Source of the DNA: an uncultured Defluviitaleaceae bacterium
GTDB lineage: Bacteria; Bacillota; Clostridia; Lachnospirales; WRBF01
Reading direction: 5' to 3'
Length of the DNA: 64,000 nt
Assembly (NCBI GenBank): GCA_964533945.1
Contig: CAZHPA010000006.1
Coordinates: forward strand, 157 to 64,156
Numbering within the stretch: the first letter of the stretch is position 1; each line of letters starts with the position of its first letter. Made by a program: the position numbers and the translations under genes. Positions 3,001-58,980 of this stretch are shown piece after piece. The notes beneath the pieces are model-generated. The model did not search any database. It saw only the letters and a list, made by a program, of their open reading frames with translations, and had not been told where the DNA came from.

Positions 3001-3322
3001 ACATACTACCTGAAGTATCCAAAACTAGAACGACAGAAGCAGGTAGGCCTTTTACTGTTTCTATTTTGTTCTGCGCTAGTATATCGAACCTTATGTTGAA
3101 ACGGTCATTATCAATTTGTTTAATTGATTTTCTGTATTCAACAAGATTATCTTCCGAAATTTGCACTGAAGGGTTGTAGACAATCTGGTCAACTATATCT
3201 GCGGAGTCATTCAAAATAACACCATTTTGATATTCAATATTTTCATCTGCAAGTATGACTGTTGAAAATGAGATTATCAGCATAATGGGTATAATTATCA
3301 TTATAAAACAATATTTAATCAT
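29..3322 (-). CDS. Large secreted cell-surface protein: signal peptide, von Willebrand factor A domain, Listeria-Bacteroides (Flg_new) repeat, Thr/Pro-rich linker, three C-terminal SLH domains
   Basis: 1097-aa ORF with a hydrophobic N-terminus. MIDAS-like VVLVLDTSGSM. YTVQFNLNGG...GFVFMGWEV repeat. TTTPSSTTTPTTTP linker. Three SLH-like units (YITRAEAASIFARL, FRPNEPITRAEFAVLA, FRPENYITRGDVVTL). Confidence 0.85.
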   Translation of the reverse strand: MIKYCFIMIIIPIMLIISFSTVILADENIEYQNGVILNDSADIVDQIVYNPSVQISEDNLVEYRKSIKQIDNDRFNIRFDILAQNKIETVKGLPASVVLVLDTSGSMLNIAPDGNTIFFHAKLAVEKFAREFLGNGEGNRLLGLIAYDQDAFNAMIDVNGKGQPLTSDLDYFLNMLNLVQPANYSTNIQIGLYKARNVLNNYGGNNPKHIVLFSDGAANLSYKAGVAKPIDDTPITPHIASNGTVMDMNFKLSNFNYDITAFPFYNLNGFHINNHYIPTISEGIIAREQDNINIYTVFFRNNNLSDIEYDSGVFTMLNIATKGQYHEIHNIIDLADLFNQLEYDIIHKTRLWIINDPFPDYMTFDGFVEEQPGAVYNSADRTLSWNLMNMEITPEFENGKYKYSLSYDVSFLSNNIGIENNTAYSTNNNTILEYFVGEHINTGTKKQVEFEVPLIRTSSMLKKYLTVYPLDMIAYQGGQSASGNSFPRPYFLVKDESGHVLTDEELKEFTFYMDGEVHVPGDHEYFIYELPFRAVYVNKETNVTHYDPSEEYSSEDVGVYNIQLTTKDNSGKVYYVTAVRGNEVYDFRFYQNASLEIRAQNQETHTSFAPILEGKPGNYKPSTPVAFVPKDTQFKNSAGINLNPLSTSTNVALMSDTLLPENQQGIENAISQLSAMQGLAHETVYLNLVDHADGNIIVQADKPVTVLYPYPTGTNKNTSFTVLHFREVNRGVDFTPKFEPDFLIAVNLEHGIAFDVSSFSPFAIAYQNKIYTVQFNLNGGTGPLSQYSSQSIPMGGKVVKPANPVRSGFVFMGWEVNVSGSMRLWNFNDSVNNDMVLIAKWKPQSDVNFTPELTPNPESTTTPSSTTTPTTTPAHTTPPANSDKPEQNVEGEHLPYVVGYPDKSFRAERYITRAEAASIFARLIEEKMELPFYASTFVDVKPGLWYSNYIGFMQQRGIIKGDNNYFRPNEPITRAEFAVLASAFSGLTGDATLSFSDVPNTHWAFREISLAVKRGWLKAYNDGTFRPENYITRGDVVTLSNQVLGRNPDIAFIKKSYRNLIDFIDLPKDFKAYYEIIEAANKHRYLKTGQNMEIWLD

Positions 3323-3611: not shown

Positions 3612-4268
3612 TTAGTATATTTCAAATATATTCTTTCTAAAACGAATCAAACCTTCATCACGCATTTTACAAAGCTCTCTTGACATAGCACTTCTGTCAA
3701 CACATAGATAGTGTGCCAATTCCTCACGATTATAAGGTATTATAACTTTAACGATACTGCTTGATATTTTATTCTCTGTACTTGTTTCGTTTACCTTATA
3801 TGAATTAAAAAACAGCAGCAACTTTTCACGAATAGTACGCCCTGCCATTATCTCGATTTTCTGACTGAGCATAATGCTTTTTTGGGCAATAATCCGTAGC
3901 ATGTTTGAAATGAGCTTTGGCTCATTATGAACTCTTTCAAAATCAATAAACAAAATCTCGCAATCAGTTGTAGCCTGCACTGTTACAGGGCTAATAATAA
4001 TGCCTGCGCATAAAAAAGCTTCGGCGAAAATTTGGCCTTTTGAAAGTTCCGATACTATGTTTATGTTACCGTTTATGTTTTCCTTAATAACCTTAATGTT
4101 GCCGTATAATACAATACCAATATCTTTCACCGTATTACCACTGAAAATTATATAATCATCTTGCTTAAACTGCACAACTCTTGATGCTAACTGTGGTAAT
4201 AACTTATCCAATGTATCACAACCGTTAAACAGCGGATTTTTTATTAAGTCATTAATACAATTTTTCAA
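3612..4268 (-). CDS. Crp/Fnr family transcriptional regulator (cNMP-binding domain plus C-terminal HTH)
   Basis: 218 aa. The N-terminal beta-roll-like region (FSGNTVKDIGIVLYGNIKV...GQIFAEAF) and C-terminal REELAHYLCVDRSAMSRELCKMRDEGLI HTH are typical of the family. Confidence 0.85.
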   Translation of the reverse strand: MKNCINDLIKNPLFNGCDTLDKLLPQLASRVVQFKQDDYIIFSGNTVKDIGIVLYGNIKVIKENINGNINIVSELSKGQIFAEAFLCAGIIISPVTVQATTDCEILFIDFERVHNEPKLISNMLRIIAQKSIMLSQKIEIMAGRTIREKLLLFFNSYKVNETSTENKISSSIVKVIIPYNREELAHYLCVDRSAMSRELCKMRDEGLIRFRKNIFEIY

Positions 4269-5828: not shown

Positions 5829-6506
5829 TTGAAAAGAATTTTAATTATTGAAGATGACGAAAACCTAAGTCGTGGAATTGGCTTTTCATTTGAAAGCGAT
5901 GGTCATTTGGTGGTAACGGCAAACACACTTAAAGACGGAGAATTTGCTTTTGATAAAGGTGGTATTGATTGCATCATTCTTGATATTGGTCTGCCAGACG
6001 GAAGCGGACTGGATTTATGCAAGTATATTCGCCAAAAATCTGAAGTTCCAATTATTATGCTAACTGCATGTGACCTTGAAACAGATGAGGTGCAGGGGCT
6101 TAAATCGGGAGCTGATGATTATATTACCAAGCCTTTTTCATTATCTGTTTTAAAAGCAAGAGTGGAAGCGCTTTTTCGCCGTTTGGGCAAAGTAAAAAGT
6201 AATGTGTTAGAAATTTCAAAATACCGCCTAGACACATCGCTCTGTAAGTTTTTTATTAGTGGCACAGAAATACCTATTAGTGCAACTGAGTTTCGTTTGC
6301 TTCATTATTTAATGTCAAATGCAGGGCAAATTTTATCAAAGGAACAAATTCTTGCGTCACTTTGGGATAATGAAGGCAATTTTGTAGACGAGAACACTTT
6401 GTCGGTAAACATAAGCCGCCTTAGAGGAAAATTAGAAACTGACCCCAAAGCCCCAAAAGCAATTAAAACGATACACGGTATGGGCTATGTTTGGGTAAAG
6501 GAGTAA
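5829..6506 (+). CDS. OmpR-family DNA-binding response regulator
   Basis: 225 aa. Receiver domain (ILIIEDDE, ILDIGLPDGSG, KP motif) plus winged-helix output (..IKTIHGMGYVW). TTG start after an AAAGGAG SD. Confidence 0.9.
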   Translation: MKRILIIEDDENLSRGIGFSFESDGHLVVTANTLKDGEFAFDKGGIDCIILDIGLPDGSGLDLCKYIRQKSEVPIIMLTACDLETDEVQGLKSGADDYITKPFSLSVLKARVEALFRRLGKVKSNVLEISKYRLDTSLCKFFISGTEIPISATEFRLLHYLMSNAGQILSKEQILASLWDNEGNFVDENTLSVNISRLRGKLETDPKAPKAIKTIHGMGYVWVKE

Positions 6507-6511
6507 ACAAA

Positions 6512-7429
6512 ATGACTTATGTTATTATTTCGATTATTGCCTTATTGTTCTGTGTGTTGACTGTCTTATTATGCCGCTTGTATGTAAAACGAGCATTTGA
6601 CACAATCGACAAAACTCTTGATGGTATTTTAAATAAAAAACTAATACTGCCATCTTCCAAACTTGCTGATAATCGGATTTCAAAACTTAACCACAAGGCA
6701 TATCGTATTTTGGATATGTATGTATCTGATGCCGCTATTGCTAAAAATGAAAAGGAAACCATACAAGGCTTTATTTCGGATATGTCGCATCAAATGAAAA
6801 CACCTCTTTCCGGTATTTCTATGTATTCTGAGCTTTTGCTAAATAATAGCTTGCCAGAAACAGAAAGAAAGGAATTTTTGCTTAGAATTAAAAAACTTTC
6901 AGATAAAATGAAGTGGATTATGGACTGCCTGATTAAACTATCAAGGTTAGAGGTTGGCGCAATAGAGCTTAATCCCACAAACGCACCTGTAAATAAAACC
7001 GTTAAGGATGCTATTGGTAGCGTACTATCTATGGCAGCAAAGAAAGACATTAATATTATTGTAACGGATTTTAAAGAGTTAGAGCTTTACCATGACACAA
7101 AATGGACGACAGAAGTAATTACTAATCTTTTGGAAAATGCAATCAAATATTCATTGCAGGGTAGTACAATTGACATATCGGTCGAGTCACTTTCGTTATA
7201 TACAAAAATTGTAATAACCGATAACGGTATTGGTGTGCCAAAAGATGAGTTAAACAAAATTTTTAAACGATTTTATAGAGGTAAAAACACAAAGGAAATT
7301 GAAGGCGCAGGGCTTGGACTTTATCTTGCTGCACTTATTATGGAAAAACAGGGTGGGTATATTGCAGTTGATTCAAAGCAAGGCGAATTTACCTCCTTTT
7401 CGGTTTTCTTACAATGTTGTAAGAAATAA
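6512..7429 (+). CDS. Sensor histidine kinase with a single N-terminal TM anchor and no extracytoplasmic domain (intramembrane/transporter-dependent type)
   Basis: H-box FISDMSHQMKTPL. N, G1 and G2 boxes (LLENAIKYS, DNGIGVP, GAGLGLYL). Only one hydrophobic segment before HisKA. ATG at 6512 follows AAGGAG. Confidence 0.85.
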   Translation: MTYVIISIIALLFCVLTVLLCRLYVKRAFDTIDKTLDGILNKKLILPSSKLADNRISKLNHKAYRILDMYVSDAAIAKNEKETIQGFISDMSHQMKTPLSGISMYSELLLNNSLPETERKEFLLRIKKLSDKMKWIMDCLIKLSRLEVGAIELNPTNAPVNKTVKDAIGSVLSMAAKKDINIIVTDFKELELYHDTKWTTEVITNLLENAIKYSLQGSTIDISVESLSLYTKIVITDNGIGVPKDELNKIFKRFYRGKNTKEIEGAGLGLYLAALIMEKQGGYIAVDSKQGEFTSFSVFLQCCKK

Positions 7430-7523
7430 ATGAGATTTTGTAAGGTAGTTGTAAGAATTACGTCTTATAATAAAAAATATAAAGTCAATTATATATTTGA
7501 CTTAACGAAAGGAGTTAATGGGT

Positions 7524-7925
7524 ATGGCAATTTTAAAAACACAGGGACTTAAGAAACACTACGGAAAAGAAAATATCGTCCGCGCGCTTGATGGTGTTGA
7601 CATTGAAATTCATGCAGGTGAGTTTGTGGCTGTTGTTGGGCAGTCAGGTTCAGGAAAAAGTACATTGCTTCATATGCTTGGCGGTTTAGACAAACCGTCC
7701 ACTGGCAAAGTAATTGTTGACGGAAACGAGTTGTCGCAGATGAGCGATGAACAACTTACAATTTTTCGCCGACGCAATGTGGGTTTTGTTTTTCAAAACT
7801 ACAATCTCGTTCCGATTTTAAATGTATATGAAAACATTGTCTTACCCATTGAACTTGATGGCAATGCGGTTGACAAGGCTTTTGTAGATGAAATCATTAA
7901 TACGCTTGGGTTGGATGAAAAGAGT
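7524..7925 (+). CDS. ABC transporter ATP-binding protein, 5' segment (Walker A, Q-loop) upstream of the IStron insertion
   Basis: GQSGSGKSTLLHMLGG Walker A; FVFQNYNLVP..ENIVLP; ends ..TLGLDEKS. After that the ORF runs into unrelated sequence and stops at 7973. Confidence 0.85.
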
Positions 7926-8340
7926 TATTTAATAGTTATCAAAAACACACTTAAATATATTAAAACATATTGATAATTATACAAAGCTCTCATAGTACGG
8001 TGACGTGCTATGTTAAAACCACATCAAATACTAGTAATCCCTAAAGCTGCACTAACTACAACGTAAAGATGAAATAAGCTTAAGCGTGAATGTTGCGAAA
8101 GTAGAAAAAATAGTGCAGATGGCATAAGGTTAAATCCTAAGTGCTATAAAACAATGGGTCTTTAGTAGGATATGCCCGAACAGGGTACTCCTCAACGACT
8201 ATCCCGGCAGGGAGTAGGGGAAAGTTCCTCGAAACGAGTGGCTCTCATAAAAATATGAGATGATGAAATAGTCTGTGCTTATGCGAAAGTATAAGGAGTT
8301 CGTAAGAGAACCGGCAGTGATTAACGACCTCTGTTGAACA
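7926..8340 (+). ncRNA. Group I intron ribozyme core (5' module of the IStron)
   Basis: No ORF. P1: exon AGAGU (7921-25) with GCUCU (7986-90), giving U7925-G7986 wobble. P2 hairpin 7991-8012. P4: 8047-54 with 8111-18, in P/Q-like contexts AAAGCUGCACUAAC / AAUAGUGCAGAU. P3 candidate: 8038-43 with 8215-20. P7: GACUAU 8197-8202 with AUAGUC 8268-73, in R/S-like contexts UCAACGACUAUC / GAUGAAAUAGUCUG. P9 hairpin 8278-95 with a GAAA tetraloop, plus further GNRA-type loops. Confidence 0.65.
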
Positions 8341-8381
8341 ATTACCAAAAAAATATATAATTTATATTTTGTTTATTATAA

Positions 8382-8407
8382 AAGGCACAAAATTACTTTT
8401 GCGCCTT
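8382..8407 (-). terminator. Hairpin overlapping the RHH stop codon; possible terminator of the RHH transcript
   Basis: On the minus strand, AAGGCGCAAAA-GTAA-TTTTGTGCCTT forms an 11-bp stem followed by TTATAATAAAC. The U-tract is weak. Confidence 0.4.
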
Positions 8408-8551
8408 AGCAGCAAAATCCTTTAGAACAGTAATAACTAAATTATTGAAGCTCCGGTTTTGTTCTTTGGCTATACTTTCTAAAGTAGCCTTTAATTCTTT
8501 TGGAATTGTAAGCATTGTACGAGTATTATGTTCTGCTATGCTTCCAGCCAT
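8393..8551 (-). CDS. Ribbon-helix-helix (CopG/Arc/MetJ-like) DNA-binding protein, 52 aa, encoded antisense inside the IStron. Below the ORF-track size cut-off.
   Basis: Translation MAGSIAEHNTRTMLTIPKELKATLESIAKEQNRSFNNLVITVLKDFAAKAQK. This shows a beta-strand (RTMLTIP) followed by helix-helix, the pattern typical of RHH proteins. GAGGTG SD sits 5 nt upstream of the ATG. Confidence 0.7.
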   Translation of the reverse strand: MAGSIAEHNTRTMLTIPKELKATLESIAKEQNRSFNNLVITVLKDFAAKAQK

Positions 8552-8569
8552 ATTGTCACCTCAAATGTT

Positions 8570-8597
8570 ATTATACCATAATAAAAACTGTTGTCAA
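8570..8597 (-). promoter_or_regulatory. Sigma-A type promoter for the RHH gene (TTGACA-N16-TGgTATAAT)
   Basis: On the minus strand, the -35 TTGACA is the reverse complement of 8592-8597. The -10 TATAAT is the reverse complement of 8570-8575 and is preceded by a TG extended element. Confidence 0.5.
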
Positions 8598-8619
8598 TAT
8601 TTAATATAACTATTGACAA
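8591..8619. promoter_or_regulatory. Perfect inverted repeat TTGTCAATA-N11-TATTGACAA covering both divergent -35 boxes; candidate RHH operator
   Basis: Arms at 8591-8599 and 8611-8619 are exact reverse complements, and each arm contains a TTGACA -35 hexamer. Direct repeats TATGATAT at 8620-27 and 8631-38 (11-nt period) lie in the PtnpB spacer. Confidence 0.5.
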
Positions 8620-8641
8620 TATGATATCAGTATGATATAAT
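8613..8641 (+). promoter_or_regulatory. Consensus sigma-A promoter for tnpB (TTGACA-N17-TATAAT) internal to the IStron
   Basis: TTGACA 8613-18, 17-nt spacer, TATAAT 8636-41. GAGGTG SD at 8654-59, ATG at 8666. Confidence 0.55.
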
Positions 8642-8665
8642 AAGTATAGAAAGTGAGGTGAAACA

Positions 8666-9874
8666 ATGATTAAAGGACACAAAGTAAGATTGCTTCCAAC
8701 TGAAGAACAAGAAAAGCTTTTGTGGAAAAGTGTTAATGCTTCAAGGTTTGTATGGAATTGGGGTTTAGCTTTTCAAATGGATAGGTTTTCTAACGGTGAA
8801 AGTCATTTAAGTGGGTATGATTTAAGGAAGGTTTTAGTTCCTTTAAAGAAAACAGAAAAATTCAACTGGTTAAATGAAGTTTCTTCAAAAGTGTGTTCGC
8901 AAGGTTTATTGGATCTAGACACAGCATATAAAAAGTTCTTTAAAATCCAAAAAACAGGCGAAAAATTCACTAAGAAAGCTATTCAAAAAGCTAAGCGTAA
9001 AGGTAGAAAGTTAACACCTTATGATTTAAACGGACACCCAAAGTTTAAGTCTAAAAGAAAGGCAAAGCCAAGTTTTTATGTTACAGTAGATAATTTTTAT
9101 TTTAAAGACGGCAATGCAATTCTTGAAAAAATAGGCAAAATGCCTTACCAAACAACATACGAGCTACCACAAGGCAGAAATACTTGTAAATTTACTAATC
9201 CAAGAGTTTCATACGAAAATGGTAAATGGATTTTATCATTTGGTATGGACAGCAAAAACCAAGCTGAAACACTCAAAGATTATTCAGTTGGAATAGATTT
9301 AGGCGTAAAAGACTTAGCTGTTATTAGCTGTAATGGTGAAAAAACTGTATTTAAGAATATTAATAAAACTAAACGTGTAAGAAAACTAAAGAAACGTTTA
9401 AAACAATCACAACATAATGTAAGTCGAAAATATCATGCTAATGGCAAATATGACAAAACAAGCAATATTCTTAAAGCAGAGCAAAAACAAAAACAGCTAT
9501 ACATTAAGTTAAAAAATATTCGCAAAGATTATGCTCATAAAGTCACAACCAAGATAGTTAGGCTTCTTCCAAAAACGATTGTTATGGAAGACTTAAATGT
9601 ACAAGGTATGATGAAAAATGAACATCTTGCAGAAGCTATACAAGAACAATTGTTTTATGAGTTTTTACGGCAAATAGAATACAAATGCAGAGCTAAAGGC
9701 ATTACATTAATTCAGGCTAATAGATTCTACCCTAGTAGTAAAAAGTGTAGCCAATGCGGAAGTATTAAGCATAATCTAAAACTTAAAGACCGTAAATACA
9801 TATGCGAGCATTGTAATCTTGCTATAGACAGAGATTTTAACGCCGCAATCAATCTTGAAAAGTTAGCTTATTAA
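8666..9874 (+). CDS. tnpB: RNA-guided endonuclease TnpB (IS200/IS605-superfamily OrfB), apparently intact
   Basis: 402 aa. N-terminus KGHKVRLLPTEEQEKLL..RFVWNW. RuvC triad contexts GIDLGVKDLAV, IVMEDLNVQGM, AIDRDFNAAINL. Zinc ribbon CSQCGS..CEHCN. Confidence 0.92.
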   Translation: MIKGHKVRLLPTEEQEKLLWKSVNASRFVWNWGLAFQMDRFSNGESHLSGYDLRKVLVPLKKTEKFNWLNEVSSKVCSQGLLDLDTAYKKFFKIQKTGEKFTKKAIQKAKRKGRKLTPYDLNGHPKFKSKRKAKPSFYVTVDNFYFKDGNAILEKIGKMPYQTTYELPQGRNTCKFTNPRVSYENGKWILSFGMDSKNQAETLKDYSVGIDLGVKDLAVISCNGEKTVFKNINKTKRVRKLKKRLKQSQHNVSRKYHANGKYDKTSNILKAEQKQKQLYIKLKNIRKDYAHKVTTKIVRLLPKTIVMEDLNVQGMMKNEHLAEAIQEQLFYEFLRQIEYKCRAKGITLIQANRFYPSSKKCSQCGSIKHNLKLKDRKYICEHCNLAIDRDFNAAINLEKLAY

Positions 9875-10025
9875 AATTTTGAGAGTAAGTTAATTTTTGT
9901 GTAGGAAATTGCTATATCCGAATTTAAGCCTGTGGATAGCTATACCAAACACTATTAGCTACGCGAATGTGGGTTTTTTGAAACAGGAAATAAACAAAAC
10001 ATATATTTCTATATGTTTTTGGTAG
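9875..10025 (+). ncRNA. Omega-RNA-like scaffold / right end of the TnpB element (probably starts inside the tnpB 3' end)
   Basis: Lies directly 3' of tnpB. Conserved block GAATTTAAGCCTGTGGA..AGC..GAAACAGGAA is shared with the relic at 14430-14500. Terminal hairpin AAACATATA-TTTC-TATATGTTT at 9997-10018. Position and homology only; no covariance model was run. Confidence 0.5.
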
Positions 10026-10308
10026 CAGAAATAATCTCCCCAATATGCTTTCAGGCGGTCAACAACAGCGTGTGGCAATTGCAAGAGCTTTGGCAACAAA
10101 GCCGTCTATTATCCTAGCTGATGAACCGACTGGTAATCTCGACAGCAAAACAAGTCAAGATGTTTTAGGTGTTCTAAAAATGACTTCGAAAAAGTTTAAT
10201 CAAACCATTGTGATGATTACCCATAATGAGCAGATTGCTCAACTTGCCGACCGCGTTATTCATATTGAGGATGGCAAAGTAAAGGGCGGTGCAAATAATG
10301 AGAAATAA
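10026..10308 (+). CDS. ABC transporter ATP-binding protein, 3' segment (signature, Walker B, H-loop) downstream of the IStron
   Basis: In-frame (S)RNNLPNMLSGGQQQRVAIARALATKPSIILADEPTGNLDS...MITHN. It has no start codon or SD of its own in a sensible position. Confidence 0.85.
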
Positions 10309-12829
10309 CAATGCCGCCATTATACGAAAAATTGCAGGGCGCACCCTGTCTTCTGATAAAAAGCGTAATATCATGGCTATTTGTGCAATTACCCTCACGG
10401 CTGTGCTGTTTACTACCTTATTTACTCTGGGTATCGGCAGCATAGATATGTTCCAAAAGGCTACCATGCGACAGTCAGGTTCAAGCGCTCATGCAGTGAT
10501 AAATTATATTGATGATGAAGAATTTGAAAAAATAAGCAAACACCCTCTGGTAAAGGAAATTGCCTATACACGTATCTTGAGCGACAGCGTAGATAACCCA
10601 GAACTGCTAAAGAGACATGGCGAACTCTGGTACATGGACGATAACGGACTAAAGCAAGGTTTTTATGAGCCTATTGCAGGGAATAGACCTGTTGCTGAAA
10701 ACGAAATCATGATGGACACAAAAACAATGCTATTGTTGAAACTACCCCAACAAATCGGTGCAAAGGTAAAGCTTGTATTAACGATACATGGAAATCAAAT
10801 TGAGAGAGACTTTGTGCTATCTGGCTGGTGGGAAAGCGACCCAGCCTTCAATGCGAGTATTTTAATTACTTCAAAAGCATATATTGACAGGCATATCAAG
10901 GAACTTGTCGTTACTTATGATGATGACTATTCCCTTGTTGGTTTAATTAACGCAAATATACGTTTTAGTAATTCATTTAATATGCAAGCAAAACTTGATC
11001 GTGTAATATTGGAAAGCGGCTTTGATGGAGTGAACAAGAATGCCCCAAACTATGTTGACGGTAATATAAATTGGGCTTATCTTTCAACAACCACGGGAGG
11101 CGACCCCATAACTACAGCTGCCATGTTTGTTGCCCTTATGTTGGTAGCTTTTACAGGATATTTAATTATTTACAATATATTTCAAATTTCAGTATTGCGT
11201 AATATTCGTTACTATGGATTACTGAAAACCATCGGAGCCACAGGGCGACAAATTAAAAACATCATCACCTTGCAAGCAACAGTACTTTCTCTGATTGGCA
11301 TACCAATTGGGCTTGCGTTGGGATATACTGTAGGTACCAAGCTTGTTCCAATGGTTTTGGCACAAACAGATTTTACAGGAACGACTTCAGAATTATCGGC
11401 AAACCCCATTATTTTTATAGCCTCTGCCGTATTTGCATGGATAACTGTGTGCATTTCCACACGCAAGCCTGGGAAAATTGCTGCAAAGGTTTCGCCTATG
11501 GAAGCAATACGATACACCGATTCCGATGTGGGCAACAAAAGAACAATGAAACGCTCTACTAATGGTGGAAAGCTTTACAAAATGGCGCTATTTAATTTGG
11601 GAAGGACTAAAAAACGCACTGCTTTGGTATTCATCTCCTTGTCATTAAGTTTAGTATTACTAAACTGCGTATTTACCTTATCTCAAGGTATGGATATGGA
11701 CAAATTTTTATCCAAATTTGTTGACAATGATTTTTTAATTGCTCATGCTAATTATTTTAATAGCCATTATTTTGGTACTGAAAGTGCCGTGGAAGAAAGT
11801 ATAATTACAAATATGGAAGCGCAGCCGGGGTTTGAGGCTGGTGGAAGACTTTACAAAACTAACAATGAATATTTTACAGTAGAGGACTCTAACAATCAGA
11901 ATAAATATAATCAAGGCCATGACAGCCACCAAATTGCTGATGTTTACGGTCTAGATGACCTACCGCTTGAACGGTTAGAAGTTATAGAAGGAGAGCTTGA
12001 TATTGAGAAGTTAAAATCCGGCGGCTATATCTTAGTAGGAGTTAACATCGATGATTTTGGTAAACCAGAAGCAGCCAAATTTAATGTAGGCGATACAGTT
12101 ATTTTACACAATTACCACATGCAAAGCTCTAACATATTAGATAAGGAGTATACGACCCAAGTATATGAGGTGCTTGCTATCGTGAAGATTAACTACTTTT
12201 CCAATTCAAATCGAACATGGAGTAGTTACACATTTTACATGCCATCAAGTATTTATCTTCCTCTCACGTACGAAAAAACAATTATGAGTTATACGTTCAA
12301 TGTCGCAGATGAATTAGAAGAGCATGTGGAGTCATTCTTGAAGTATTACACAGAAAATGAAGAACCGCTGATGCATTACGAATCAAAAGAGACCCATGTA
12401 AAAGAATTTATGGGTATGCGAAACTTAATTCTTTCTATTGGCAGCATATTGAGCGGTATTATTGGATTAATTGGTATACTGAATCTTATAAACACTGTGT
12501 TCGCCAGCGTAATCACGCGTCGTCAAGAGTTTGCTATGTTACAGAGTATTGGCATGACGAAAAGACAGCTTAGAAATATGCTCTGTTTAGAGGGGCTTTA
12601 CTATGCAGTTGGAACAATAATTGTTTCGTTTGTGTTAGGGGTTTTAAGTTCACATTTCATTATCCGAATATTAATGAGTGGATTGTGGTTTGTAACCTAT
12701 CAGTTTATTGTTTTGCCGCTTATAATATGTTGGCCAATTTTTTTCCTAATATCATTGTTTATTCCTATTATAATTTTTAACGGAAGTATGAAAGAAAGTG
12801 TAGTGGAGCGTTTGAGGGAAGTAGAATGA
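10298..12829 (+). CDS. FtsX/MacB-type ABC transporter permease with large extracytoplasmic domains
   Basis: About 843 aa. N-terminus MRNNNAAIIRKIAGRTL is typical of this permease family. Two FtsX-like TM bundles (..YGLLKTIGATGRQI.. and ..FAMLQSIGMTKRQL..). Its start overlaps the ATPase stop. An alternative GTG lies at 10289. Confidence 0.85.
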   Translation: MRNNNAAIIRKIAGRTLSSDKKRNIMAICAITLTAVLFTTLFTLGIGSIDMFQKATMRQSGSSAHAVINYIDDEEFEKISKHPLVKEIAYTRILSDSVDNPELLKRHGELWYMDDNGLKQGFYEPIAGNRPVAENEIMMDTKTMLLLKLPQQIGAKVKLVLTIHGNQIERDFVLSGWWESDPAFNASILITSKAYIDRHIKELVVTYDDDYSLVGLINANIRFSNSFNMQAKLDRVILESGFDGVNKNAPNYVDGNINWAYLSTTTGGDPITTAAMFVALMLVAFTGYLIIYNIFQISVLRNIRYYGLLKTIGATGRQIKNIITLQATVLSLIGIPIGLALGYTVGTKLVPMVLAQTDFTGTTSELSANPIIFIASAVFAWITVCISTRKPGKIAAKVSPMEAIRYTDSDVGNKRTMKRSTNGGKLYKMALFNLGRTKKRTALVFISLSLSLVLLNCVFTLSQGMDMDKFLSKFVDNDFLIAHANYFNSHYFGTESAVEESIITNMEAQPGFEAGGRLYKTNNEYFTVEDSNNQNKYNQGHDSHQIADVYGLDDLPLERLEVIEGELDIEKLKSGGYILVGVNIDDFGKPEAAKFNVGDTVILHNYHMQSSNILDKEYTTQVYEVLAIVKINYFSNSNRTWSSYTFYMPSSIYLPLTYEKTIMSYTFNVADELEEHVESFLKYYTENEEPLMHYESKETHVKEFMGMRNLILSIGSILSGIIGLIGILNLINTVFASVITRRQEFAMLQSIGMTKRQLRNMLCLEGLYYAVGTIIVSFVLGVLSSHFIIRILMSGLWFVTYQFIVLPLIICWPIFFLISLFIPIIIFNGSMKESVVERLREVE

Positions 12830-43857: not shown

Positions 43858-44556
43858 ATGGCTATAATACAAATTGAAAATTTAACAAAAGTTTATCGCA
43901 ACGGAAAAATTGAAGTTATGGCATTAAGGGGAGTTAATCTTTCTATAGAAAAAGGCGAATATGTTTCAATTATGGGTGCTTCTGGTTCAGGAAAGTCAAC
44001 GCTTATGAACATTTTGGGCTGCCTTGATTCATTAACAACAGGAATGTATTTTTTAGATGAAGAAGATGTTTCAAAGCTAACAGGCAAAAGCCTTGCCAAA
44101 ATAAGAAATAGAAAAATTGGCTTTGTATTTCAATCTTTTAATCTTTTGCCAAAATTAACAGCGCTTCAAAACGTTGAGCTTCCAATGGTGTACGCAGGCG
44201 TTTCCAAAAAAATAAGACGTTCTGCCGCTATGGAAGCGCTTGAAAAAGTTGGGCTTACAGAAAGAGTTAAACACAAGCCAAACGAACTATCTGGTGGGCA
44301 AAGGCAGCGTGTTGCAATTGCCCGTGCATTAGTTAATAAGCCGTCGCTACTACTTGCAGATGAACCAACAGGAAACTTAGATAGCCGTTCTGGAGAAGAA
44401 ATTATGGAAGTTTTCCAAAAACTGCACGATGAAGGCTCAACTATTGTTATGGTAACACATGAAGATGATATTGCACAGCACACTAAACGCATTGTTATGT
44501 TTCGTGATGGCTTAATTGTTTCAGATGATGTTGTTAAAAATCGTATAATACTATAA
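43858..44556 (+). CDS. MacB/LolD-type ABC transporter ATP-binding protein
   Basis: GASGSGKSTLMNILG, FVFQSFNLLP, LSGGQRQRVAIARAL, LLLADEPTGNLD, VTHE. Confidence 0.9.
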   Translation: MAIIQIENLTKVYRNGKIEVMALRGVNLSIEKGEYVSIMGASGSGKSTLMNILGCLDSLTTGMYFLDEEDVSKLTGKSLAKIRNRKIGFVFQSFNLLPKLTALQNVELPMVYAGVSKKIRRSAAMEALEKVGLTERVKHKPNELSGGQRQRVAIARALVNKPSLLLADEPTGNLDSRSGEEIMEVFQKLHDEGSTIVMVTHEDDIAQHTKRIVMFRDGLIVSDDVVKNRIIL

Positions 44557-57549: not shown

Positions 57550-58980
57550 TTATTTTTGATAATGTATAGGCAATCGTACTAAAAAAATGCTTCCTTCATT
57601 TTCCTTACTTGTTAGCCTAATGCTTCCATTGTGCAAAAGAATTGTTGAATGGGTTATAGAAAGCCCAAGCCCTGTTCCGCCTGTTTCTCTATCTCTTGTT
57701 TTATCAACCCTGTAAAACCTATTAAAAACTTTTGCCTGATGCTCTTCGTTAATGCCAATGCCCGTATCTTGAACGGTTATAAAAGCGTTTTGATGGTCGC
57801 AATCTAAAATTATTCTAACAGTTCCGCCTTCAGGTGTATATTTAATGCCGTTTTCAATTAAATTTGATATTGCAAGACTAAGCTTAACTTCATCTGCTTC
57901 TACAACAATCGTTTTAATTTCTTCAAAAATCAATTCAATGTTTTTTTGCTCTGCTAAAGGGTTAAGGCGTTTTAATATATCGAAAACAACCTCGCTAATA
58001 TCAGTTTCTCTTATATTTAAGCCAATTTCTCGCTGGTCTAGCTTAACAAGGTTTAATAAATCGTTTACGATATTTGTCATTCGGTCTATTTCTGAATTAA
58101 TATCTTGCAAAAATTCACGATACATTTCAATTGGAACAGTTTGTTCTAAAAGTATTGATTCTGTTAAAACCTTTATTGAACTTAAAGGCGTTTTTAATTC
58201 ATGAGAAACGTTAGAAACAAATTCTTCCCTTGTTTTTTCAACTTGCTCAAGCTTTTGAGTCATATTGTTAAAAGCAATACCAAGTTCTGAAAATTCATCT
58301 TTGCCTTTAACTGTTATTCTTTGATTTAAATGTCCGTCGGACATTTTTTGAACAACTTTTAAAACGTTGTTAAGTGGGTCTAACAAAAATTTAGAGCCAA
58401 TAAACGATAAAAAGACAAGCAATATAACCGTTAAAACTATAAATAAAAGAAGTATTTTTTCTATTTTATCAAGTGCCGAATATATGTCTTTAAGCGATGC
58501 AACTATAAGTACAACGCCTATTTTTTGGGAATCTTTATTAAAAATAGAAACAGAAACGTATAAAATATCACCTTTTGCAGAAATTTTGCTGTTTTTTTGC
58601 AGCCCTTCAACCATTTCAGGCGTTACATAAGTTTTGCCTATTTCTGTTTTGCTTGAATCATTAATAACAATGCCTTTTGTATCTAACACAAGTATTCTAA
58701 TTGAGTTTTCTTTGCTTTTAATATTTATTTCGCCTTCAAGCATTTGGCGTTTTGCTTCATCGGATAGGAAGTTGTTTTGCGAAATGCTGCCTGCTATTAT
58801 ATTTGCTGTTGTTAAAAGCTTAAGTTCTCGTTCGTTTTTATAGTATGTTTCCATAGAAGTTAAAATTGTGTTAAAAAATAGCAAAATAGGCACAAAGCTA
58901 ATAAATATAAAGCTACAAAACAGCTTTAACCTAAGGCTATGATACCAGCGCTTTTTGGTGTTATTTAAAATAATAACCAA
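57550..58980 (-). CDS. Sensor histidine kinase (two TM segments, extracytoplasmic domain, HAMP, HisKA, HATPase_c)
   Basis: H-box FVSNVSHELKTPL. N box NLIENGIKYT. G boxes DTGIGI and GTGLGLSI. Confidence 0.85.
   Translation of the reverse strand: MVIILNNTKKRWYHSLRLKLFCSFIFISFVPILLFFNTILTSMETYYKNERELKLLTTANIIAGSISQNNFLSDEAKRQMLEGEINIKSKENSIRILVLDTKGIVINDSSKTEIGKTYVTPEMVEGLQKNSKISAKGDILYVSVSIFNKDSQKIGVVLIVASLKDIYSALDKIEKILLLFIVLTVILLVFLSFIGSKFLLDPLNNVLKVVQKMSDGHLNQRITVKGKDEFSELGIAFNNMTQKLEQVEKTREEFVSNVSHELKTPLSSIKVLTESILLEQTVPIEMYREFLQDINSEIDRMTNIVNDLLNLVKLDQREIGLNIRETDISEVVFDILKRLNPLAEQKNIELIFEEIKTIVVEADEVKLSLAISNLIENGIKYTPEGGTVRIILDCDHQNAFITVQDTGIGINEEHQAKVFNRFYRVDKTRDRETGGTGLGLSITHSTILLHNGSIRLTSKENEGSIFLVRLPIHYQK

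Follow-up and report, generated by a model that had tools for sequence, protein, structure and literature searches.

A conserved Arc-like gene divergent from tnpB in a Defluviitaleaceae IStron, and its predicted operator in the tnpB promoter

What does a 52-amino-acid (52-aa) open reading frame (ORF) do when it lies back to back with tnpB inside an IStron, and through which DNA sites might its product act? This question is raised by a 64-kb stretch of DNA (hereafter the window) from an uncultured Defluviitaleaceae bacterium (contig CAZHPA010000006.1), in which the two halves of a host ABC-transporter ATPase gene are separated by a structured region, the 52-aa ORF on the minus strand, a 114-nucleotide (114-nt) gap, tnpB and, finally, a RAGATH-18 motif. 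A preliminary description of this locus proposed that the ORF encodes a ribbon-helix-helix (RHH) protein forming an autoregulated switch for tnpB, with a palindrome between the two genes as the shared operator. The best explanation of the locus as a whole, and in our judgment a very likely one, is an IStron-borne repressor of the Arc type that acts on a box within the spacer of the tnpB promoter and keeps tnpB expression low. The fold, family, synteny, promoter consensus matches, selection and conservation of the box were all computed here, as was a hairpin that is present in the window and recurs in relatives, whereas binding to promoter DNA and repression of the tnpB promoter are taken from published homologues.

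The ORF, which we term arc, occupies positions 8393–8551 on the minus strand. It begins with ATG. As first described, the Shine-Dalgarno sequence GAGGTG precedes it (8557–8562, minus strand, where the plus strand reads CACCTC; 5 nt from the ATG) and it is divergent from tnpB. The sequence GAGGTGA is kept in related arc loci. The proposed RHH fold is upheld by structure prediction. An AlphaFold2 model of the protein has a mean predicted local distance difference test score of 84, with helices at residues 18–30 and 35–51, and all of its top Foldseek matches in the PDB are RHH proteins (ORF56, CopA, CopG, Arc, AmrZ and PutA), with template modelling scores of 0.65–0.9 and root-mean-square deviations of 0.7–1.7 Å. 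Family comparisons give the same answer. There is a match to PHROG 582, annotated as “Arc-like repressor” (E=3.8e-9), and among 25 aligned relatives all 25 match Pfam RHH_5 (best value 2.3e-8) and 14 match Pfam Arc. The exact protein was found in a sequence collection as coming from an NCBI genome, without a protein accession, which fits its description as unannotated. An identical Arc occurs on only one other contig (L036; Logan SRR10912416, 3,966 nt), which ends inside tnpB (183 aa), perhaps because the presence of multiple tnpB copies in that sample broke the assembly.

We identified 82 homologues of ~50 aa that share 60–80% identity. The alignment of 25 relatives has 19 invariant positions, with a core that reads NTRTxITIPKELK...NRSFNNLVIT. 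For tnpB-linked copies, the median proportion of synonymous differences is 0.73, which is saturated, and that of nonsynonymous differences is 0.27; dN/dS ranges from 0.09 to 0.30 where it can be estimated. Conservation and these values together indicate that arc is a coding gene under purifying selection, and a chance ORF is ruled out by the conservation and the dN/dS. The 52-aa ORF is a genuine, conserved RHH protein.

The genomic surroundings of the family were examined in 117 occurrences gathered from metagenome, genome and viral contigs (loci and contigs outside the window are labelled L001–L117). In 41 of the 117 loci, tnpB and the RHH gene diverge from a gap of 84–147 nt, and the partner TnpBs in these loci are 32–53% identical to that of the window or belong to another subfamily. 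The ORF and its divergent layout recur in these related copies. In most of the remaining loci the partner gene looks, as judged by eye, like a GIY-YIG or HNH homing endonuclease, and a few RHH genes lie beside recombinase-like genes. One locus (L012) carries identical RHH genes at 3151–3306 (minus strand) and 4001–4156 (plus strand), inverted and with mirrored flanking genes, an arrangement due to inverted duplication or, alternatively, to an assembly palindrome.

The preliminary description did not recognise this module as part of described IStrons. However, an Arc-like IStron ORF was reported by Zedaveinyte et al. (bioRxiv 10.1101/2023.11.20.567912; cited as Science 385:eadm8189, 2024), with WP_003367503.1 as the seed and with homologues beside TnpB, homing endonucleases and other mobile elements (10.1101/2023.11.20.567912). 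The window Arc is 61% identical to this seed over 49 aa (E=1e-23 in a pairwise comparison). WP_003367503.1 also underlies a tblastn match on plasmid p1 of C. botulinum BKT2873, where it is divergent from a TnpB and has a promoter, TTGACAAGCTGATATCAACTTGTTATAAT, of the same design as that in the window. The two proteins are of similar size, both genes are divergent from tnpB with a promoter of the form TTGACAAG..TGATATCA..TATAAT, and related loci have a putative group I intron module 3′ of arc. The loci differ in the length of TnpB (402 aa in the window, 415 aa in the other), in the host gene, in the −35 elements (two boxes 22 bp apart in the window versus a single shared −35) and at Arc residue 13 (Met versus Leu). 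The small RHH ORF is mentioned neither in a 2014 survey of IStrons nor in a 2026 Nucleic Acids Research paper on IStron mutagenesis.

Experimental data on the family come from Moon et al. (bioRxiv, 28 Sept 2026, 10.64898/2026.09.24.754181), who observed chromatin immunoprecipitation sequencing peaks of Arc homologues on the bidirectional intergenic promoter. In E. coli this promoter equals J23119 in strength, and Arc specifically represses a reporter driven by the tnpB promoter; mutations in the β-strand or in the binding site relieve repression (10.64898/2026.09.24.754181). Autoregulation and repression of tnpA “remain proposed extensions” according to the same authors, who also note that some arc genes are absent from annotations and that some members are of ≤50 aa (10.64898/2026.09.24.754181). 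The window Arc resembles the IS605 Arc proteins of Petroclostridium xylanilyticum and C. botulinum studied there in predicted function and layout. Unlike the element in the window, which is an IStron without tnpA, the main elements of Moon et al. are autonomous and carry arc and tnpA on one side and tnpB on the other. The idea of a switch that controls tnpB is therefore right in its core but not new, because the family (2023–24) and its repressor activity (2026) were already published. As one more unannotated member of a published family, the locus changes little; its modest value lies rather in the comparative features described below, which might help in annotating small arc genes overlooked by gene callers.

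The gap between the arc and tnpB start codons (8552–8665) is 114 nt long. Within it are the two near-perfect sigma-A promoters reported earlier, each of which matches the consensus at 12/12 positions and has TG before the −10 element. Parc (8570–8597, minus strand) has the form TTGACA-N16-TATAAT, and PtnpB (8613–8641, plus strand) the form TTGACA-N17-TATAAT. No other perfect TTGACA/TATAAT promoter exists in the window; shuffled sequences predict 0.12, and 1 of 100 shuffles reached two. From the consensus matches, the arc-tnpB gap is predicted to be a bidirectional promoter, and the paired promoters are conserved among related loci. Only 6–7 nt separate the Parc −10 element from GAGGTG in the window (8563–8570) and in most relatives, so that the arc mRNA presumably starts at or just before its Shine-Dalgarno sequence and would be almost leaderless.

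Several repeats are superimposed on these promoters, and they too were found as described. A perfect inverted repeat, TTGTCAATA-N11-TATTGACAA (8591–8619), has two 9-nt arms that are the opposed −35 boxes. It is unique in the window, where none is expected by chance, and the same region can alternatively be read as a 22-bp-spaced direct repeat of TTGWCAATAT. Further downstream, the direct repeats TATGATAT begin at 8620 and 8631, 11 nt apart, for which the chance expectation is 0.01. The first of these repeats corresponds to a palindromic TGRTAYCA box, TGATATCA (box 1, 8622–8629), which lies in the PtnpB spacer and is our predicted core Arc operator on the grounds of spacer conservation and enrichment. 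A second box, TGATATAA (box 2, 8633–8640, plus strand), follows box 1 by 11 nt and overlaps the PtnpB −10 element. A third, TGGTATAA (box 3, 8571–8578, minus strand), was read from the sequence and overlaps the −10 element of Parc.

Either the palindrome or the boxes might be the operator, and the choice between them rests on an alignment of tnpB promoters from 19 distinct lineages. In all 19, the PtnpB spacer is 17 nt long, with the consensus TTGACAAGnTGnTAnCAnTATGnTATAAT and high information content within the spacer. In the same lineages, Parc spacers show no conservation beyond a generic TRTG. The density of the strict TGRTAYCA sequence is 9.9 per kb over the 150 nt that precede RHH genes and 0.07 per kb elsewhere in the loci, a ~140-fold enrichment. 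Where the RHH partner is a homing endonuclease, the box is found in multiple copies ~11 nt apart. The box thus travels with the RHH gene, since it is present whether the partner is a TnpB or a homing endonuclease.

A competing view grants the same repression but takes the palindrome TTGTCAATA-N11-TATTGACAA as the operator, with one Arc tetramer bound over both −35 boxes to give symmetrical co-repression and autoregulation. The perfection and uniqueness of the palindrome, which chance does not predict, speak for this arrangement, as do the conservation of the base after the −35 element (TTGACAA) and the placement by Moon et al. of a motif on the tnpB promoter −35. However, 13 of the 19 lineages have a single shared −35 region (TTGACAAG on one strand and CTTGTCAA on the other) and no such palindrome. 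Only six, including the window, have two separate −35 boxes in a duplicated −35-box module, and in these the distance between copies varies, with loops of 11 to 29 nt, so that the N11 spacer is not conserved. Moreover, the symmetry of TTGACAA and TTGTCAA follows automatically from two promoters that stand back to back, and binding-site mutations that spared the −35 still relieved repression in the published assays (Moon et al.). We therefore consider the palindrome unlikely to be the operator, and this part of the preliminary description gives way to the conserved spacer box. With moderate confidence, the comparison points to the TGRTAYCA boxes as the probable operator. This comparative definition of an operator, namely a box in an invariant 17-nt spacer that co-travels with the RHH gene, adds to the published picture and could guide the design of binding-site mutants.

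Two groups of loci illustrate how the box is distributed. In viral contigs (L088–L116), the ~150 nt upstream of an RHH gene at 2498 contain three to five copies of the box, as (A)GTGGTATCA or AGATACCA, which occur in both orientations and in many cases lie 11 nt apart. The RHH homologues there are 57–59% identical and are divergent from proteins that resemble GIY-YIG homing endonucleases. The Arc/box pair looks like a cassette common to TnpB and homing-endonuclease genes. Loci of the Acetoanaerobium noterae type (L001–L008; the protein occurs on 353 contigs) have retained a perfect palindrome as their box, AAGTTGATATCAACTT. Where the −10 element of tnpB should lie, these loci read GCTCTC, and the tnpB promoter may for this reason be dead while arc and its operator persist.

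The predicted mechanism for the window is as follows. The 114-nt gap would send out transcription in both directions from two strong promoters of the sigma-A type, leftward from Parc and rightward from PtnpB. Arc dimers would bind box 1 in the PtnpB spacer and probably also box 2, one helical turn downstream, over the −10 element. Bound Arc would exclude RNA polymerase, and transcription of tnpB (and of omega RNA) driven by the element itself would remain low. Sequence-specific promoter binding and tnpB repression by the window Arc are accordingly predictions, derived from box conservation and from the homologues. Arc might also repress its own gene, through the weaker box 3 on the Parc −10 or through a degenerate copy of the −35/box module on the left; self-repression is less certain here because the −35 boxes lie 22 bp apart and are not shared. 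The exact operator, the stoichiometry, autoregulation and termination of arc transcripts at a hairpin described below are the steps that we infer. Classical RHH repressors bind as dimers to short boxes, repeated at intervals of about one helical turn, which overlap promoter elements (Schreiter and Drennan 2007). P22 Arc, CopG of plasmid pMV158 and omega of pSM19035 have the RHH fold in common with the window Arc, but their sequences are only 20–26% identical to it, and their DNA boxes and genetic contexts differ.

Several observations weigh against repression through the spacer box. Taken alone, the window Arc scores below the Pfam RHH_5 gathering score (20 versus 26 bits), and no NCBIfam model matches it. 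On the strand that faces the DNA, the window Arc has Met at residue 13, where N, L, Q or T is found in the 24 other aligned relatives and I or V in some further loci, and no clear co-variation between this residue and the box flanks is apparent among the loci compared. Only 27 of 62 distinct loci contain the strict box, and boxes 2 and 3 are inseparable from the generic extended −10 element of Firmicutes (TRTGnTATAAT). The published data agree with our placement only in part: according to the text of Moon et al., the motifs cover PtnpB at its −35 and the arc/tnpA promoter at its −10, some homologues gave no detectable binding, and IStron-borne copies were no explicit subject of the tests, the word IStron being absent (10.64898/2026.09.24.754181).

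It is also conceivable that the RHH protein does not act on DNA but serves mainly as an antitoxin-like inhibitor of TnpB or of its RNA complex. Altae-Tran et al. (PNAS 2023, PMC10691335) proposed from co-folding that archaeal RHH/MazE-TnpB pairs are toxin-antitoxin systems, and Moon et al. refer to a suggestion by which Arc would interact with the complex of TnpB and omega RNA. Consistent with these ideas, the family profile matches the EndoAI antitoxin (E=0.007), which is the best sequence match in the PDB. The archaeal pairs resemble the window in having a small RHH gene adjoining tnpB. The resemblance ends there, since the archaeal genes are co-directional with the RHH gene upstream, and their TnpB is immobile with a rearranged RuvC-III (D-to-H; PMC10691335). 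In the window, arc and tnpB are divergent and form no operon, TnpB retains the canonical DRD RuvC-III motif, and the 52-aa protein is only the RHH core, without a C-terminal tail for toxin binding. Furthermore, the same RHH family keeps the same DNA boxes beside the unrelated GIY-YIG and HNH nucleases, for which reason recognition of DNA fits better than recognition of a particular protein. Membership among type II toxin-antitoxin antitoxins or archaeal RHH-TnpB pairs is ruled out by the divergent gene order, the lack of a tail and the canonical DRDFNAAINL sequence, and a mainly antitoxin-like role is in our view highly improbable.

We give even less credence to a role of Arc in transposition or partition, for example by modulating excision or integration, or to a role as an activator. 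Such functions do exist among RHH proteins, which include activators (AlgZ/AmrZ) and partition proteins, and there are weak matches to PHROG families annotated as partition protein ATPase. However, there is no strict TGRTAYCA box near the ends of the element; the sole other copy in the window is at 58940, a number within chance expectation. The boxes instead lie within the promoter core, which is the geometry of a repressor, and the homologues repress in reporter assays.

Repression at the spacer box can be combined with these distributions into a broader reading, which we offer as speculation and regard as quite doubtful. Arc and its TGRTAYCA boxes might constitute a portable “governor” cassette that moves among TnpB, GIY-YIG and HNH nucleases. 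In IStrons, where arc is antisense to the transcript of the host gene and intron, read-through from the host could hit Parc, lower the level of Arc and de-repress tnpB when the interrupted gene is highly expressed. Nuclease expression would thereby be coupled to host transcription. On this reading, the −35/box module that is duplicated and split apart here, as in five further lineages, would be a variant in which arc autoregulation and tnpB repression are no longer linked.

A further question is how far arc transcription extends, since the gene is antisense to the ribozyme. The preliminary description had RHH transcription running into the ribozyme core, with possible interference with splicing. 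Folding of the end of arc reveals a terminator-like hairpin, AAGGCGCAAAA-GUAA-UUUUGUGCCUU followed by UUUAUAAU (8382–8407, minus strand), with an 11-bp stem and the arc stop codon in its loop. Of 22 related loci that were folded, nearly all have an equivalent hairpin and U-run where the arc coding sequence stops, despite sequence divergence; these include L009, L017, L021, L022, L038, L039, L044, L054, L061 and L080, with the stop codon in or beside the loop. The structure resembles an intrinsic terminator, conserved and built into the end of the coding sequence. A scan for consensus terminators did not call the window hairpin, because its U-run is weak. Given the recurrence of the hairpin and U-run at the stop codon, arc transcripts probably end there without entering the ribozyme, and this recurrence across relatives argues against antisense interference. 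The recurrent hairpin, like the exact delimitation of the IStron given below, is an addition of the present analysis.

The boundaries of the element were derived from the interrupted gene, for which the ORF list gives two pieces (7518–7973 and 10045–10308). When position 7922 is joined to 10027, the sequence LGLDEKRNNLPNMLSGGQQQ results and a 228-aa ATPase is encoded, which aligns without gaps across the joint to a paralogue in the window (43858–44556). Removal of the insert restores an intact host gene. This alignment sets the insert size at 2,104 nt. As drawn, with splice sites inferred, the IStron spans 7925–10028 (plus strand), with G as its last nucleotide, between exon 1 (7518–7924, plus strand; junction uncertain by 2 nt, 7922–7924) and exon 2 (10029–10308, plus strand), both placed by the ORF list and the joint alignment. 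An AG dinucleotide occurs at both junctions (7923–7924 and 10027–10028), and boundaries of 7923–10026 are equally valid; the paralogue alignment locates the joint only to within this AG repeat. Splice sites chosen by reading frame and by the rule that the exon ends in U and the intron in G gave no combination that also yields the canonical protein length. No further plausible gene, and thus no tnpA, is in the ORF list between 7925 and 10028, which makes the element non-autonomous. It is best explained as a non-autonomous IStron, composed of a putative group I intron, arc, tnpB and omega RNA, inserted in frame in the ABC ATPase gene.

The structured region 3′ of arc contains the putative catalytic core of a group I intron (7987–8295, plus strand), which matches the full Rfam model RF00028 (model positions 1–253) with 32.7 bits and E=1.3e-6, below the gathering score of 50. 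An Rfam scan of 7000–11000 at E≤1 returned no intron, and RF00028 surfaced only in a scan of 521 nt with laxer filters. A homologous structured module of ~370 nt lies 3′ of arc in many of the tnpB-linked related loci. The same order of tnpB, a 49-aa hypothetical protein and an annotated “Group I catalytic intron” appears in the record of C. botulinum phage D-1873. A candidate internal guide sequence, GCUCU (7986–7990, plus strand), could form P1 with the exon-1 end AGAG(U) at 7921–7925, as judged from the sequence. Sibling elements have matching pairs of exon end and guide, such as GAGGU with GCCUC.

The tnpB gene (8666–9874, plus strand) encodes a 402-aa RNA-guided endonuclease with the Pfam domains HTH_OrfB_IS605, OrfB_IS605 and Cas12f1-like_TNB, and a Shine-Dalgarno sequence, GAGGTG, can be read at 8655–8660 (plus strand). 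The product scores 282.8 bits against NCBIfam guided_TnpB (cutoff 100), and its translation carries the motifs GIDLG, MEDL and DRDFNAAINL and a CxxC...CxxC zinc finger. An exact look-up of the 402-aa protein returned no record. It scores higher with the IS200/IS605 model (231 bits) than with the IS607 model (175 bits). Separately, the AG at the insert junctions resembles the core dinucleotide that is repeated at the ends of IS607-type elements, which have a serine TnpA. Downstream of tnpB, the RAGATH-18 motif (9929–9989, plus strand; Rfam RF03064, 48 bits against a gathering score of 44.9, E=1.8e-7) is taken as part of the omega RNA scaffold.

The interrupted ATPase gene belongs to a cluster (5829–12829) with genes for a response regulator and a histidine kinase and a large ORF of permease size. 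A related IStron on a plasmid of C. botulinum BKT015925 (L117) interrupts a sensor histidine kinase gene beside a response regulator gene. The insertion sites of both IStrons are thus signalling or transport loci, possibly by coincidence.

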